Of a stretch of 28,060 nucleotides of DNA, positions 6,758 through 16,135 are shown piece by piece. The stretch is from a virus. Taxonomy: Duplodnaviria > Caudoviricetes. A program made the position numbers and the translations under genes. The notes under the pieces are model-generated. The model did not search any database. It had not been told where the DNA came from and saw only the letters and a program-made list of their open reading frames with translations. The stretch spans positions 1 through 28,060 of the IMG/VR virus record IMGVR_UViG_3300027586_000038, one strand, 5' to 3'. Each line of letters begins with the position of its first letter. Position 1 is the stretch's first letter.

Positions 6758-7243
6758 CTAAAAAAGTTTACCTTGCGAAGGTGGAAAATATTCATTCATC
6801 AATTGCTCGTAGTCAAAATACTCTTTAAAGCATTCTGAAATATGAACTAAATTTTGGCTGACGACTTCAACATCGCCTTTGTAGGTATAAACTTTTTCAG
6901 GTATTTTTTGTACACCATGAACAAAGTCCACGCCCAATTTTGTGGCTTTCCACATGCCCGAATGCTTGTTTTTAGGGTCATCGTTGCCCCGCCTTACAAC
7001 CAACTCCCACCACCTAAGGGTAGCTAATTGATTAGATCTAACAAGCCATCGAGGGGCATTTGTAGGAACATCAACCCAACCATTTTCGTCTTTACCTGCT
7101 TGGCACAACCACATTAAAGAATGAGCCATGGTTTTGTTGATATTCCTTGCGTAGATCCTGCCCCACCTGTCGCAAACAGGGCAGTAACCACCATCATGCT
7201 CAATGGTGGCTCTCCAACTTTTTCGAAGTTGATCCCTGTCCAT
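6758..7243 (-). CDS. Hypothetical protein with CxxC and a C-terminal QGKLF motif
   Basis: CPVC, probable winged-helix-like core, fits the operon packing. Confidence 0.7.
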   Translation of the reverse strand: MDRDQLRKSWRATIEHDGGYCPVCDRWGRIYARNINKTMAHSLMWLCQAGKDENGWVDVPTNAPRWLVRSNQLATLRWWELVVRRGNDDPKNKHSGMWKATKLGVDFVHGVQKIPEKVYTYKGDVEVVSQNLVHISECFKEYFDYEQLMNEYFPPSQGKLF

Positions 7244-8225: not shown

Positions 8226-8338
8226 GATTCGCTTTCGTTAAATGTTTCTAACCTTACCACGTTTAACGTGTCGATACACAAAACGGTTGACACGTTCCAA
8301 ATTAGTGTAACATCAAAGAATATAACAAGGAAACCAAA
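8226..8338. promoter_or_regulatory. Divergent promoter/operator region
   Basis: TTGACA at 8287-8292 (+), extended -10 TGTTACACT at 8312-8304 (-), palindrome CACGTT-T-AACGTG and near-palindrome GTGTCGATACAC. Confidence 0.65.
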
Positions 8339-8551
8339 ATGACGCTACAAGAATATTTTAAAGACAAGCCGCGAGGTGCGCAGTCATTGCTGGCAAAGCA
8401 ACTCGGTATCAGTAGAACGTGGTTGTCACTCATCCTCACAGGTAAACGCCAACCATCACCACGCTTAGCTATGGAGATCGAGCGACACACCTTACGCAGT
8501 GTTAAACGCGTTGATTTGCTCCCTGAACTTTTTAGCAAGGCTGTCAAATGA
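8339..8551 (+). CDS. cro: Cro/YdaS-like helix-turn-helix regulator
   Basis: QSLLAKQLGISRTWLSLILTGKRQPSP HTH, V-x-R-x-D-L-x-P-E tail, first gene of the rightward operon. Confidence 0.85.
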   Translation: MTLQEYFKDKPRGAQSLLAKQLGISRTWLSLILTGKRQPSPRLAMEIERHTLRSVKRVDLLPELFSKAVK

Positions 8552-8880
8552 ACTGGTACAAATTTAACATTGTTGAATTTTACGAAAAGTTGGGTGACCT
8601 TACCGTGCTAGAGGAACTTGTGTATCGGAGGTTAATTGACTTGTATTACCTCAACGAAGAGCCCTTGCCAAACAACCTTTTGGAACTTATAGATGCCGTG
8701 GACATGGGCGACGAACATACAGTTGAGCGCGTATTGGAATCGTTTTTTCTGCTTGGCAAAGAAGATGACTGTTGGCACGACGAAGCCATTGATCGTGACT
8801 TGATGAACCGTAAGCATCAAGTATCTATGAACCGACAGATCGGCCAAAAGGGTGGTCGTCCTAAGTCAACCAAGGCGTAG
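8548..8880 (+). CDS. DUF1376/YdaU-family protein, short stand-alone paralog
   Basis: MNWYKFNI...LEELVYRRLIDLYYLNEEPLP...GQKGGRP. Confidence 0.8.
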   Translation: MNWYKFNIVEFYEKLGDLTVLEELVYRRLIDLYYLNEEPLPNNLLELIDAVDMGDEHTVERVLESFFLLGKEDDCWHDEAIDRDLMNRKHQVSMNRQIGQKGGRPKSTKA

Positions 8881-8944
8881 TGTTAAACGTTATGGTACGA
8901 TCCTGTCACAATTTCTTTTTGTAACGATGACCAACAGCGCGAGG
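8865..8944 (+). promoter_or_regulatory. Promoter-like element (GTCAACC-N17-GTTATGGTACGAT, then CAACAGCG)
   Basis: Same boxes and 17-nt spacing as the elements at 14524 and 16087. Confidence 0.55.
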
Positions 8945-8949
8945 TTTCT

Positions 8950-9705
8950 ATGCACTACTACCAATTTAACATCGGTGACTACCAGTCCCACACGGCACAC
9001 CTTGAGCCGCTTGAGGACTTGACCTACAGGCGCTTGCTTGATTGGTACTACCTCCACGAAACACCCATACCCACTGATTTAACTCAGGTTGCACGACAAA
9101 TTAGGATGCGTTCGCATAGCGAGTGCATTGCAACCGTATTGCAAGAGTATTTCGAGTGCACTGATGCGGGGTGGGTGCATCACAGGGCAAACAAGGAAAT
9201 AGCCAAGACAGGTGAAAAGTCTGAGAAGGCAAGTGCAAGCGCTAAAGTCAGGTGGGATAAGGTCAAAGATGCGAACGCATTGCCAACGCAATCCGATAGC
9301 AATGCTACACATAACACAGAACACAAGACACAAGACACAATTAAAGAAGCTAAAGCTTCTTTGTCGGTAGCTTCGCTCCCAACCTGCCCGCATAAGGAAA
9401 TTTTGAAGCTTTGGCAAACCAAGTTACCGAACCTTGTTCAACCAAGGGTATGGGAGGGAGCTAGGCAGGCTTCTTTGCGGCAAAGATGGATTCAGGCATC
9501 CAAGCCCTCGGAATTCTCAAAAAAGGGATATAGCACCGTTCCTGAGGGTTTGACATGGTGGTCAAGCTTCTTTGATTACATAGCCGATGACACCAAGCTG
9601 GCTAAGGGCTTTGAAACTAACGGGCGAGTGTGGGTGCCCGATCTTGAGTGGGTGGTCAATGCGACCAATTTTCAAAAAATCATTGATGGAAAGTACAACA
9701 AATGA
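8950..9705 (+). CDS. Replication initiator (lambda O-like), DUF1376/YdaU N-terminal domain
   Basis: MHYYQFNIGDY...YRRLLDWYYLHETPIP, internal iteron-like repeats, C-terminal DLEWVVNATNFQKIIDGKY motif. Confidence 0.85.
   Translation: MHYYQFNIGDYQSHTAHLEPLEDLTYRRLLDWYYLHETPIPTDLTQVARQIRMRSHSECIATVLQEYFECTDAGWVHHRANKEIAKTGEKSEKASASAKVRWDKVKDANALPTQSDSNATHNTEHKTQDTIKEAKASLSVASLPTCPHKEILKLWQTKLPNLVQPRVWEGARQASLRQRWIQASKPSEFSKKGYSTVPEGLTWWSSFFDYIADDTKLAKGFETNGRVWVPDLEWVVNATNFQKIIDGKYNK
9269..9341 (+). repeat. Putative replication origin: three 11-bp iterons plus five ACACAnn 7-mers
   Basis: ATGCGAACGCA/TTGCCAACGCA/ATCCGATAGCA, then ACACATA ACACAGA ACACAAG ACACAAG ACACAAT, inside the initiator gene as in lambdoid phages. 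Confidence 0.7.
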
Positions 9706-9935
9706 GCTTCGAGAAACCAAAAGACAAGTTTGACATTGACGCGTTTGAGGGCAAATCCTTGATGTGCCAAGTAGCTGGATGCGGCAAGCCTTGGTCAGTC
9801 AACATGGGCTGGCGCAAGTGCTCAGCGCATGCGTGGGGCAAGGATCCTGATTATGGGCTTTCATCAGTTCCAAAGGTTGCCTTTAAGCATCCACCCGTTA
9901 AGCCTTTCAGCGAAATTGACGACGAGCCGTTCTGA
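9702..9935 (+). CDS. Small putative Zn-binding protein with acidic SSB-like tail
   Basis: C-x4-C...C-x2-H, ends EIDDEPF, ATGA-coupled to the initiator. Confidence 0.7.
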   Translation: MSFEKPKDKFDIDAFEGKSLMCQVAGCGKPWSVNMGWRKCSAHAWGKDPDYGLSSVPKVAFKHPPVKPFSEIDDEPF

Positions 9936-10195
9936 TGCCTTACGCAAAACCAAACTTGGATCAAGGAGTTCTTTTTGGCGAGCAAGAAGCTTGGAGAGAA
10001 GAATGGCAAGGTATGCCTGAGTTTGAACAAAAAAACTTGTTGCCGGAATATTCTGTGCGAATCAATTTTGCTACATATGAAGACATGCAAAATTTTGCAT
10101 CCATGATTGGTCAAACCATTTCAGCCAAAACGCAATCCATTTGGTATCCCAAGCAGATGCGGGAAGACCTTTCGGGGAAGCGATATGTTGAATAA
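9935..10195 (+). CDS. Small partner protein of the glycosyltransferase
   Basis: EWQGMPEF...F...IGQ...KTQSIWYP pattern, which I recall upstream of phage TAGT-like genes; coupled on both sides. Confidence 0.7.
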   Translation: MPYAKPNLDQGVLFGEQEAWREEWQGMPEFEQKNLLPEYSVRINFATYEDMQNFASMIGQTISAKTQSIWYPKQMREDLSGKRYVE

Positions 10196-11051
10196 ATACC
10201 CTATCTACATTGTTTCTAAAGGGCGGTGGGATAAACGCCTGACGGCAAACTCTCTTGACGAAATGGGTGTGGATTACAAAATAATTGTTGAAAAACAAGA
10301 GTTTGAAAATTACGCAAACGCAGTGGGTGAATCAAAGGTTTTGATTCTTCCGCAATTGTATTTGGATGAGTACGTTACATGTGATGAGTTGGGTGACAAC
10401 AAGGGTAAAGGCCCCGGGGCGGCTCGTAATTTTGCCCTTGACCACAGCAATGCTGAGCGTCATTGGGTCATGGACGACAACATGGATGGCTTTTACCGCC
10501 TAAACCAAAATTTAAAAATCAAATGTTTGACTCCCTCAATTTTTAGAGCGGCTGAGGATTTTGTTGACAGGTATGAAAACGTCCCGCTGGCTGGATTTAA
10601 TTACGCCATGTTTGCCAAGCGCAAAGACAGCCTTCCTCCATTTGTTTTGAATACAAGAATCTACTCTTGCTTGTTGGTTAGCAATTCAATCAAGCATCGG
10701 TGGGAAGGGCGCTATAACGAAGACACTCACTTGTCCCTTAGGGTTCTAAAAGATGGGGATTGCACAATTCAATTTAATGCTTTTCTTGCGGATAAAGTAA
10801 GAACGCAAACCATGAAGGGCGGCAACACAGATATGTTTTACGCCAAAGAGGGCACATTAAACAAATCTCAGATGCTTGAGCAACTTCATGCAGATTGCGC
10901 AAGGGTGGTGTGGAAGTTTGATCGGTGGCATCATTTTGTTGACTACAACCAATTTAAAAAAAATAAATTGAAGCGCAAGGCAAGTTGGAATTACGTTGGC
11001 GTAAATAATTTTGGAATGAAACTTGTGAGGCGCACTGATGAACAAACATGA
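10185..11051 (+). CDS. TAGT/GREB1-like glycosyltransferase, putatively DNA base-modifying
   Basis: YPIYIVSKGR, ARNF, HWVMDDN, NTRIYSCLL, GRYNEDT and KGGNTD motifs; start moved to ATG 10185 after a GGGGAAG RBS. Confidence 0.75.
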   Translation: MLNKYPIYIVSKGRWDKRLTANSLDEMGVDYKIIVEKQEFENYANAVGESKVLILPQLYLDEYVTCDELGDNKGKGPGAARNFALDHSNAERHWVMDDNMDGFYRLNQNLKIKCLTPSIFRAAEDFVDRYENVPLAGFNYAMFAKRKDSLPPFVLNTRIYSCLLVSNSIKHRWEGRYNEDTHLSLRVLKDGDCTIQFNAFLADKVRTQTMKGGNTDMFYAKEGTLNKSQMLEQLHADCARVVWKFDRWHHFVDYNQFKKNKLKRKASWNYVGVNNFGMKLVRRTDEQT

Positions 11052-11250
11052 AGCGAACCAAATCCTCGACAAAGCCCGCGAAGGTGAACCTTGCCCCGAG
11101 GATTTCATTACTCTCCTCCTCCATATCACAGGAGACCTTGGAGCACATGCGCCAATGCGAAGCAAGGGAATGGATGTCGAGGCGTCTGCGCAAGATTGGC
11201 GAGGTCGGGTTAGACAACGCGCTATTGTGGTGGGCAGGAGTCAAGCATGA
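11038..11250 (+). CDS. Phage hypothetical protein, 70 aa
   Basis: GAGG RBS, overlaps the glycosyltransferase stop, ANQILDKAREG...ITGDL pattern. Confidence 0.55.
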   Translation: MNKHEANQILDKAREGEPCPEDFITLLLHITGDLGAHAPMRSKGMDVEASAQDWRGRVRQRAIVVGRSQA

Positions 11251-11329
11251 CATTGATAAGCGTCGAGGAGTTGGAGCAAGCGCTGATCTTGTTAAAAGAA
11301 TGGAGATTGAACGTGCAAAAACAAAATGA
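11147..11329 (+). CDS. Phage hypothetical protein, about 60 aa (RQCEAREW...KRRG)
   Basis: GGAG RBS before ATG 11147; resembles small phage proteins found just upstream of rusA. Confidence 0.55.
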   Translation: MRQCEAREWMSRRLRKIGEVGLDNALLWWAGVKHDIDKRRGVGASADLVKRMEIERAKTK

Positions 11330-12107: not shown

Positions 12108-12541
12108 ACGAGCTTGACCCCGAAGACGAAGCATTCAACGATATTGAGCGTATGTCAAACATAAGAAAAGAGAGCGTGAAGATGACAATGTTGAAACCAA
12201 AAACAGCAGAAGAGTTTTACAACGAATTACGCGAAAAAGCTCTTAACGAGGTTCGGGTTGAATATGAAGAGAGGCTTGATAAGGCGTATGGGGAGGCAAA
12301 AAAAATAATACTTGGATTGCGCGACGACGTTGCCAGTTTAGAGTTTAAGGTGTTGATGCTACAGATGGAGGTAACGCGATGCCATAAAAATGAAAAATTG
12401 GAAAACGAAAACAACTTGCAGTTTGAAAAATGGACTGAAGAATTTTTTATTGTTCACGGTTTATCAAAATACATTGAGCCGCTTAACAATTATTTGATTG
12501 AAAAAATTTCAAACAATGGAAAACAAGAGGACGAAGCATGA
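12104..12541 (+). CDS. Hypothetical coiled-coil protein
   Basis: ATGA coupling at both ends. Confidence 0.65.
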   Translation: MNELDPEDEAFNDIERMSNIRKESVKMTMLKPKTAEEFYNELREKALNEVRVEYEERLDKAYGEAKKIILGLRDDVASLEFKVLMLQMEVTRCHKNEKLENENNLQFEKWTEEFFIVHGLSKYIEPLNNYLIEKISNNGKQEDEA

Positions 12542-12699
12542 TTGAAGAAGATGATGACATTCAAGACTACAAGAAGCCGTGGGTAGGGCTGACGCTAGAA
12601 GAGCAAACTAAGTTGTTTGAGGGCGATTGGGACGAACACGACGGCTGGGGGGTACTTTATGAAGCTATTGAAGCCAAACTTAAGGAGAAGAACACATGA
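12538..12699 (+). CDS. 53-aa protein of the WVGLTxEE...AIEAKLKEKNT type (absent from the ORF track)
   Basis: Hand translation; ATGA overlaps at both ends; motif familiar from aquatic phage genomes. Confidence 0.8.
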   Translation: MIEEDDDIQDYKKPWVGLTLEEQTKLFEGDWDEHDGWGVLYEAIEAKLKEKNT

Positions 12700-13690: not shown

Positions 13691-13764
13691 TGTCAACCAA
13701 CACAAAACCTGTTGCGTTGTTTATCTTGGAGTTATACTTCAATCCTCTAAACCAACAGCGAAAG
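13691..13764 (+). promoter_or_regulatory. Promoter (TGTCAACC box, TTGCGT, GTTATACT, CAACAGCGAA)
   Basis: Shares boxes with the elements at 14524 and 16087; TATACT is a good -10. Confidence 0.65.
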
Positions 13765-14523: not shown

Positions 14524-14572
14524 TTGTCAACCGATTCGGTTTCAATTGCGTTATAGTATGGTCTCAGGACAA
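14524..14572 (+). repeat. Promoter-containing direct repeat, copy A (49 bp)
   Basis: 45/49 identical to 16087-16135 by manual alignment; contains the palindrome AACCGA-T-TCGGTT and GTTATAGTATGGT. Confidence 0.9.
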
Positions 14573-15529: not shown

Positions 15530-16081
15530 ATGCGAAGAATAACCCCCGAGGGCCCATTGCGAGACTTCCCACTTGAGGTGGGTACGCTTTGGCGCAGTCG
15601 CAATGACGAGCCCGAGCAAGAGGTGTTTGACCGCCTGCCTGAATGGATGAGGCCTCAGAGTGAGGACAGGGACACCCTAATTGATTTGGAGCGCCTTGTG
15701 CCCGCAATTTTGGAGGGCTTGCGCCCCAAGGAGCGAAAAGTGCTTTGGTACCGTTTTTGGGGTGATTTCACTCTTGACGAAACTGGCAAGGTGCTCGACG
15801 TTACAAAAGAACGAATACGGCAAATTGAAGCAAAGGCTTTGCGCAAGCTCAAGCACCCCACGCGCAGTGAATTGCTTCACCCATTTGTAGATCAGTGCCC
15901 TAAGCATCGGCGAATGATTCTAAAGAGTCAGGAGGTTTCGTCAGAGGTAAAATTAAAATTAGCGGAAGAGATGGCGCAAAAGTATCAGGACGTGCTAGAC
16001 GCTTTAGATCAAAAAGATAAGCGCCGAGCCATCAGGGCTGTGCTGGACGCTGAGTATCAAAATTGGTTGAAAAATAATTAA
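15530..16081 (+). CDS. Stand-alone sigma70 region-4 domain protein
   Basis: [13 protein letters not shown]...[41 protein letters not shown] closely matches the RpoD C-terminus; no region 2 seen. Confidence 0.9.
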   Translation: [183 protein letters not shown]

Positions 16082-16086
16082 AAATT

Positions 16087-16135
16087 TTGTCAACCAATTC
16101 GGTTTAAAATGCGTTATAGTATGGTCTCAAGACAA
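16087..16135 (+). repeat. Promoter-containing direct repeat, copy B (49 bp)
   Basis: Matches copy A; both are followed by CAACAGCGAAGGATyTAAAATG. Confidence 0.9.

Follow-up and report, generated by a model that had tools for sequence, protein, structure and literature searches.

A two-gene TAGT glycosyltransferase cassette, gained and lost as a block in a freshwater phage, as a candidate DNA-tethered glycosylation module

In a freshwater phage, two short adjacent genes, one for a glycosyltransferase of the TAGT family and one for a small partner protein with an unnamed domain, are gained and lost as exactly two genes. The DNA analyzed in the current study (referred to as the window) is a stretch of 28,060 nucleotides, which forms the entire IMG/VR-type contig IMGVR_UViG_3300027586_000038. 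A prior interpretation of this DNA, made from the letters alone (the sequence-only reading), had taken the window to span the whole early region; the contig is complete as a record, but covers only about 50% of a phage genome of about 55 kb, in which the early region is of the lambdoid type and the late genes are P22-like. On balance, and by a narrow measure, the data favour the view that the pair would form a glycosylation module complete in itself, tethered to DNA and using this DNA as a substrate without prior priming.

Both genes are located on the forward strand. The partner (9935-10195) is a protein of 86 residues with a short N-terminal arm and a WxGMPEF...F..D..F...W(Y/F)P domain, and the TAGT gene (from the ATG at 10185 to the TGA at 11051) encodes a 288 residue enzyme of the GT-A glycosyltransferase family. 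The translational coupling layout predicted for the pair was found in the reading frames, since the partner and TAGT frames overlap by 11 nt, and the partner start sits inside a TGATG stop/start overlap (9933..9937, forward strand) with a 77-aa ORF directly 5' of it. This TGATG is the left boundary of the insert. The right boundary is a second TGATG (11036..11040, forward strand), which contains the start of a resident 70-aa ORF, the first bases of which double as the last codons of TAGT. The pair had also been placed between the initiator region and rusA. It does not abut rusA: two overlapping ORFs (11038-11250 and 11048-11329) are found between TAGT and rusA; they are read in different frames, overlap by about 200 nt, and are both conserved (55–89%) in relatives. 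Tandem DUF1376 initiator-like genes are found at 8548-8880 and 8950-9705, and the short one is also present in close relatives.

The insert is exactly 1103 bp in length and is flanked by the TGATG repeats. In the closest relatives (L162, L163, L164 and L194; flanks 84–88% identical to the window at the nucleotide level) the site is empty, and the 77-aa and 70-aa ORFs join at a single TGATG. Among 26 slot-spanning backbone relatives, gathered by exonuclease or terL match, TAGT was present in one only (L172/G080, complete), where the cassette occupies the identical slot in a diverged lineage (62% and 38% identity). Near-identical cassettes (85–92% protein identity) were found in other backbones, one of them with a terL only 25% alike.

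The cassette and empty forms coexist in all three lake metagenome DNA runs. The cassette contigs (1250-1274 bp) showed 0–1 differences and had depths of 32, 34 and 11, while the empty-site joint (9932>11036), which skips exactly 1103 bases and has 5 shared letters, had depths of 85, 124 and 33. By contig depth, a rough and poor measure of the share of each form, the cassette is carried by about one quarter of the molecules in the three runs. The window ORFs (all-frame, at least 70 aa) were also compared with two complete carriers, G010 (54 kb) and G080 (55 kb, with terminal repeats), and four non-carriers (G079, G081 and G082, complete; G076, partial). Partner and TAGT were the only window ORFs common to a complete carrier yet missing from the four non-carriers; G010 and G080 have in common one short stretch near terS, which is missing from the window. 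A nearly invariant polymorphic insert of this kind is what a role in conflict, with selection that fluctuates, would be expected to produce, although it is no proof of such a role.

The cassette is AT-richer than terL (GC content 0.420 vs 0.582), as had been noticed. This is only a weak sign of foreign origin, as several neighbouring early genes have a GC content as low or lower (0.33–0.44) and 7.6% of the same-length early-region windows fall below the cassette; the empty-site comparison is the real evidence for insertion. The position within the replication operon had been read as a sign of replication-coupled modification. This argument was rejected because the insertion is recent and the neighbours of the homologs vary, including terS/terL (homologs often lie by terminase genes), portal genes, tRNA clusters, rIIB and helicases.

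A promoter-like element, GTCAAC-N17-CGTT, is located upstream of the initiator (8865..8891, forward strand), and is likely to drive the operon whose transcription would extend into the cassette. Five exact copies were found in the window (8265-8291 on the reverse strand, 8865-8891, 13692-13718, 14526-14552 and 16089-16115), compared to 0.09 expected. The window also encodes a sigma-70 region-4 protein (15530-16081). A scan of the window for sigma-70 promoters gave a yield below chance. One RNA run contained two low-depth contigs, one of them reaching 9785-10016; these do not count as a sign of transcription.

Other genes were noted in this phage group. A 1393-aa polyvalent-type protein (19075-23256) is encoded in the terL/portal interval and has a weak ART-PolyVal match, and its homologs in G010 and G080 exceed the ART-PolyVal cut-off. 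Tail-region accessory genes include a beta-ketoacyl synthase in G010 (L051:10091-11762), and a sulfotransferase and an APS kinase in G074 (L277:4990-6263).

The assignment of the enzyme as a TAGT-like glycosyltransferase was confirmed by profile searches (Pfam PF20691, E 1.3e-42, 146.5 bits against a cut-off of 27.5, model positions 1–205 of 205; phrog_842, E 2e-51). The AF2 model (pLDDT 87.8) had GT-A enzymes as its top Foldseek matches, which shows a GT-A fold; these were glycan and protein GT-As, at only 8–14% identity. The protein has a pI of 8.9, and its motif residues are R14, D97-D98-N99 and E179-D180. Compared with the motif R...DDD...ED(Y/F), as worded in the preprint by Pyle, R14 and E179-D180 are present, while the triad reads DDN and the third residue of the ED element is T. 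Residues R14, D97, D98, N99, E179 and D180, together with a GGNT motif, were invariant in 23 sequences, among homologs 40–83% identical, and intact frames of the cassette type occur in thousands of clusters. In a tree of 112 sequences the clade formed a single branch, and all of its 106 members had DDN, a count that is partly selected as one of the two locus-search patterns included DDN. The other six sequences, all DDD, were the TET-linked P12024L enzyme and five 'second' TAGTs.

The partner, which the sequence-only reading had correctly picked out as an 86-aa ORF, had no family match in Pfam, PHROG or NCBIfam. The profile of its domain matched 3,378 representatives (clusters) at E<=1e-3. In the WQGMPEF core (10004..10024, forward strand), W24, M27 and P28 were invariant in 26 aligned sequences, and G26, E29 and F30 were nearly so. 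The domain was found at 115 of 121 loci of the window's TAGT clade. When the loci were found by TAGT alone, it was present at 76 of 78 bacterial-genome loci (the best 80 of 116 loci, two being excluded for lack of upstream room) and at 32 of 36 viral loci (42 found, six excluded for the same reason); the four viral misses have long N-terminal extensions.

In cultured phages (Aeh1, 65, POP12, GD1, PTm1, Kuja and Vibrio 1.076.O) the domain was present in seven of seven, always fused to the N-terminus of TAGT and often as a tandem repeat. The fusions point to a physical complex of partner and TAGT, and the tandem repeats suggest that the domain may work as a dimer. ORF086c of Aeh1 corresponds to half a partner domain (HHalign E 3e-6). 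The monomer model of the partner was poor (pLDDT 72, pTM 0.42), a structure search (VIA) gave no match at a Z of at least 2, its sequence had no match below E 0.15 in the PDB, and the ESM Atlas matches were only unnamed viral clusters. These empty searches do not show a new fold.

In 35 of the 80 genome loci, and in three viral loci, the partner domain lies behind a ParB N-terminal module (ParB-N), the matches of which were phage ParB proteins and the N-terminal part of DNA methyltransferases from phages (phrog_498). These fusions are commonly located directly upstream of terS/terL. The partner in the window had no ParB match in Pfam or PHROG, ParB-N being found only in homologs. Its low-pLDDT arm carries the sequence QGVLF (residues 10–14; 9962..9976, forward strand), as previously read, which is a candidate beta-clamp-binding motif. 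The consensus of such motifs is QL[SD]LF.

The two N-terminal features appear to exclude each other. QxxLF was found in 7 of 20 stand-alone partners vs 0 of 22 ParB fusions (p 0.003), and [LMIF]F in 16 of 20 vs 4 of 22 (p 1e-4), in a set dereplicated at 60% from which eight rows without the core pattern were dropped, and whose rows are not phylogenetically independent; before dereplication, QxxLF was found in 0 of 38 ParB fusions. It was also present in 75 of 145 top profile hits (shuffle mean 0.6), a count that is inflated, as the profile itself contained the motif. Among the short partners of the bacterial-genome set only 1 of 18 had strict QxxLF, and the complete carriers G010 and G080 have forms without the Q (MTDLF and TLNLF, respectively). 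One QxxLF copy in 86 residues is by itself modest evidence, since the remaining proteins of the window, about 7,000 residues in all, contain the motif two more times. The proteins concerned are two early ones, the phrog_2693 protein (6758-7243, reverse strand; C-terminal QGKLF) and the product of 12538-12699 (QTKLF), which are possibly further binders of the host clamp or chance occurrences.

Clamp-type peptides were also seen in the T4-like carriers, at the other end of the protein. C-terminal peptides of the T4-like polymerase type bind clamps. The TAGT of GD1 ends in ..IEDFMC, resembling the end of its own polymerase (..IDDFM), ORF086c of Aeh1 ends in ..LASLFDI (gp43, ..LSDLFGDM), and the second TAGT of L022 ends in ..LNDFFT (gp43, ..LEDFFHE). 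The module protein POP12_147 likewise ends like the polymerase of its own phage. At another locus (L131:1412-2539) the partner-TAGT pair, the partner of which has QINFF, is immediately followed by a gene for the beta clamp of DNA polymerase III, so that partner and clamp would be a cognate pair. Further N-terminal modules, all helical, were found on or beside the partner domain (L097, L100, L107, L117, L152, P0161 and P0189). Most had no family match, and some may resemble domains that are fused to phage methylases. Thus, the earlier suggestion of a DNA target with clamp tethering agrees with the ParB fusions and the distribution of the motif, and all of its support is comparative.

The enzymes of this family known from phages act on acceptors primed by other enzymes, and the window had been described as free of TET, hydroxymethylase and methyltransferase genes. 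Six-frame searches for TET, ThyA, C5 methylase, N6/N4 methylase and 2OG-FeII_Oxy_3 families in the window were empty, in agreement with this description, and C5 methylase, N6/N4 methylase and 2OG-FeII_Oxy_3 were likewise absent from six-frame translations of the complete carriers G010 and G080. Tet_JBP gave no match in the window (G000), G010, G013, G024 and 18 backbone relatives in six frames, with P12024L as a positive control; in the first set (0 of 31) the search was run without this control, and it was repeated with the control for part of the set. The ThyA family had no match in 24 IMG/VR carrier records, nor in the window and the 18 backbone relatives. Beyond the window, no TET, methyltransferase or ThyA homolog was found in G010 and G080, and neither was a second glycosyltransferase or any priming family. 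No DNA polymerase family was found among the scanned ORFs of the window, G010 and G080. The missing half of the window's genome was examined through relatives only: G074, G084 and G085 overlap the window at 80–95% identity and reach into this half, and had no TET, ThyA family or C5 methylase match. The 'orphan' reading of the cassette therefore appears strengthened by the two complete carriers and by the contigs over the missing half.

Among bacterial genomes that bear the clade, Tet_JBP exceeded the cut-off in one of 49 (representing 49 of the 80 loci), on an unlinked contig of 990 kb. Weak Tet_JBP matches in G043 (on another contig) and G065 (in frame inside an exonuclease-like ORF) were rejected, as was a weak ThyA match in Aeh1, which falls within the span of gene 47. 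Exceptions were found, in addition to a cluster of five loci described below: in PTm1, a gene annotated as pyrimidine-hydroxymethylase-like lies at a distance of 29 kb from TAGT, and G018 contains C5 and N6/N4 methylases. The single ThyA-family genes of the other cultured carriers are putative ThyA. The ORF-by-ORF Pfam scans, which took one ORF per stretch and are non-exhaustive, missed the C5 methylase of G018 that the six-frame search detected; Dam-type methylases were covered by the ORF-by-ORF scans only.

The homologs differ in what lies around them. In 5 of the 80 loci (one cluster, judged by a scan of the cluster representative) a C5-methylase-like gene is nearby. In some carriers the pair is accompanied by a second TAGT, of the DDD type, or by different glycosyltransferases. 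In prophage-like loci of Erwinia sp. and Pantoea stewartii (L086/L087, 3184-6852) the order is ParB-partner-TAGT-terS, preceded by an MptE-like gene, a gene of 307 aa without annotation and a methyltransferase, and these loci may represent a longer pathway in a cultured host. The hmU pathway is a usual trait of the Ackermannviridae. In one member of this family, Vibrio phage Kuja (L047, 7581-10269), two tandem fused partner-TAGT genes and one ThyA-family gene were found, and the tandem genes may have replaced the hmU pathway.

According to the reading favoured here, the partner would bind TAGT and hold the enzyme on DNA, in the window phage probably via the host beta clamp through QGVLF. With a nucleotide-sugar of the host as donor, TAGT would next modify the phage DNA in one step, at an ordinary site that has received no priming, and the sugar would likely shield this DNA from host nucleases. 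The motif points to clamp binding by the partner, and the enzyme family, the ParB architecture and the clamp motifs together suggest DNA as the substrate. A canonical base or the backbone would be the acceptor, because no priming genes were found, and the role in anti-restriction is proposed by analogy. We put forward a more specific version only tentatively, with rather more doubt than confidence. It would be a one-step hypermodification, in which the sugar is placed without priming on a canonical base (exocyclic amine, ring N or O) or on the backbone, and the adaptor's tether (ParB clamp, host beta-clamp motif or gp45-type peptide) is swapped according to the replication machinery.

A protein target is the first alternative, and we regard it as unlikely. 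TAGT would glycosylate a protein as GREB1 does, for example the clamp of the host, a protein of the replisome, of a defence system or of the virion, to which the partner and its motif would direct the enzyme. GREB1, which is related to TAGT, is a protein O-GlcNAc transferase (PMC7968844, according to the available part of the text), and a Ser/Thr hydroxyl requires no priming enzyme, so that the orphan state would be explained directly. Many homologs adjoin terminase or portal genes, and the top Foldseek matches noted above include protein GT-As, although at low identity. However, the partner domain is fused behind the ParB module of phage DNA methyltransferases in the 35 genome loci, clamp-type motifs of two different systems recur, and the cassette moves between unrelated virion types while its proteins remain 85–92% identical, which fits better with a universal substrate.

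The second alternative keeps DNA as the target, with an acceptor primed from outside the cassette by a host or unrecognised phage enzyme, as an oxidised base (5hmU or 5-hydroxycytosine), or by a first sugar from another transferase; we judge it improbable. In the phage-DNA literature, so far as its accessible text goes, all characterised phage TAGT reactions use a hydroxyl acceptor. The hydroxymethylase-like gene of PTm1 and the additional glycosyltransferases beside some pairs agree with external priming, and a Krischvirus whose cytosines are glucosylated although its genes reveal no such pathway (PMC13390438) indicates that gene searches can miss pathways. Against this, no third gene is common to carriers and missing from non-carriers, G010 and G080 contain neither a second glycosyltransferase nor a priming family, and prophage-like loci with the cassette are spread over many phyla, so that a rare base would have to be supplied widely by the hosts. 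That the cassette is only a hitch-hiker with weak or no catalysis, or serves for binding and has no transferase activity, is very improbable, since the motif residues and GGNT are invariant and the frames are intact in thousands of clusters, even though the clade has DDN where the TET-linked and second TAGTs have DDD (106 vs 6 of 112) and the cassette is dispensable, with a minority share by contig depth, a poor measure.

Many phages have solitary TAGTs, the substrate of which is described as an open question in the accessible text of two papers (PMC13216743, PMC8056088). The locus described here is such a system cut to two short genes, which is naturally added or removed as a block. Its carrier phage has no recognisable nucleotide-modifying genes, and the locus offers a minimal construct together with natural carrier and non-carrier strains. 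If unmodified DNA were sugared, this would be a new route to base hypermodification and a two-gene tool for protection or labelling. A domain that so far has no name, although it is represented by more than 3,000 clusters, would also acquire a function. If a protein were sugared, the enzyme would be a phage counterpart of GREB1.

The closest known systems are the solitary TAGTs of the Aeh1ORF087c type (Aeh1, 65, phiAS5, POP12, GD1, PTm1, Kuja and Vibrio 1.076.O), the glycosyltransferase domains of which are 48–59% identical. The window TAGT is 56.5% identical to that of Aeh1, and the partner profile matches residues 26–95 of Aeh1ORF087c (E 1e-12). By this identity, the DDN triad and the WxGMPEF domain, the window pair belongs to the same orphan TAGT clade. 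Aeh1ORF087c is tabulated as a glucosyltransferase presumably modifying an unknown base (PMC8056088, in the available part of the text, where the table cites Iyer 2013). Solitary TAGTs were reported in 288 of 753 genomes, and novel transferases were suggested (PMC13216743, available text). In the accessible portion of a preprint by Pyle, glycosyltransferases without a nearby 5mYOX or ThyS were judged less obviously DNA-directed. The available part of PMC2993671 names neither Aeh1 nor 65 among the carriers of gene 42, and considers T4 relatives without this gene to be free of major modifications, on the basis of a pseudo-T-even study, the phages of which may not be carriers.

In the phage-DNA literature, as far as its available text extends, the acceptor of GT-A enzymes is a hydroxyl group, on 5hmC, on 5hmU or on a sugar already attached, and no direct glycosylation of a canonical base was found in these papers. 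Within the openly accessible main texts, no paper on the partner domain, on its swappable N-terminal modules or on the activity of the clade was found (PMC7824862 and PMC13326640 likewise contained nothing relevant), nor biochemical data for any clade member, nor restriction or LC-MS data on the cultured carriers.

The founding TAGT, the beta-glucosyl-HMC-alpha-glucosyltransferase of T2/T6, shares PF20691/phrog_842, the GT-A fold and the R...DDx...ED motif with the window enzyme. It needs gene 42 and alpha-gt, whereas no ThyA-family gene was found in the window phage, and no T-even record was among the 25 tblastn hits of the window TAGT at E<=1e-5. The TET/JBP-associated phage GT-A enzymes (such as P12024L gp27; Burke 2021, Pyle 2024) have in common with the window TAGT the post-replicative DNA GT-A family, at 25% identity (E 1e-7). 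The window enzyme differs from these in that no TET or C5 methylase was found with it, in having DDN rather than DDD, and in forming a separate clade with a constant WxGMPEF partner.

Two further systems are similar in architecture. ParB proteins with an NBD-linker-small CTD layout activate phage DNA T-dioxygenases (5mYOX176/ParB176; PMC13229309, available text), and 35 of the 80 homologous loci resemble them in having ParB-N and a small C-terminal domain by a post-replicative DNA-modifying enzyme; here, this enzyme is a glycosyltransferase, and the window partner is without ParB-N. The alpha-glucosyltransferase of T4 co-purifies with the gp45 clamp in a pull-down (PMC13216743, available text), which is a precedent for clamp-coupled DNA glycosylation. 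The T4 enzyme is a GT-B that acts on 5hmC and binds the phage's own clamp directly, whereas the tether proposed for the window would consist of a subunit distinct from the enzyme, acting through the clamp of the host.

The idea itself is not new, since the literature already lists Aeh1ORF087c, and with it the clade, as a transferase that acts on an unknown base. The Aeh1ORF087c type is one fused protein found in cultured phages, while the window encodes two genes with a QxxLF-armed partner, in a clean presence/absence insert of a small phage in which neither a polymerase nor nucleotide enzymes of its own were found. What the window locus adds is this exact two-gene presence/absence form in a small phage, together with the mutual exclusion of ParB and QxxLF.
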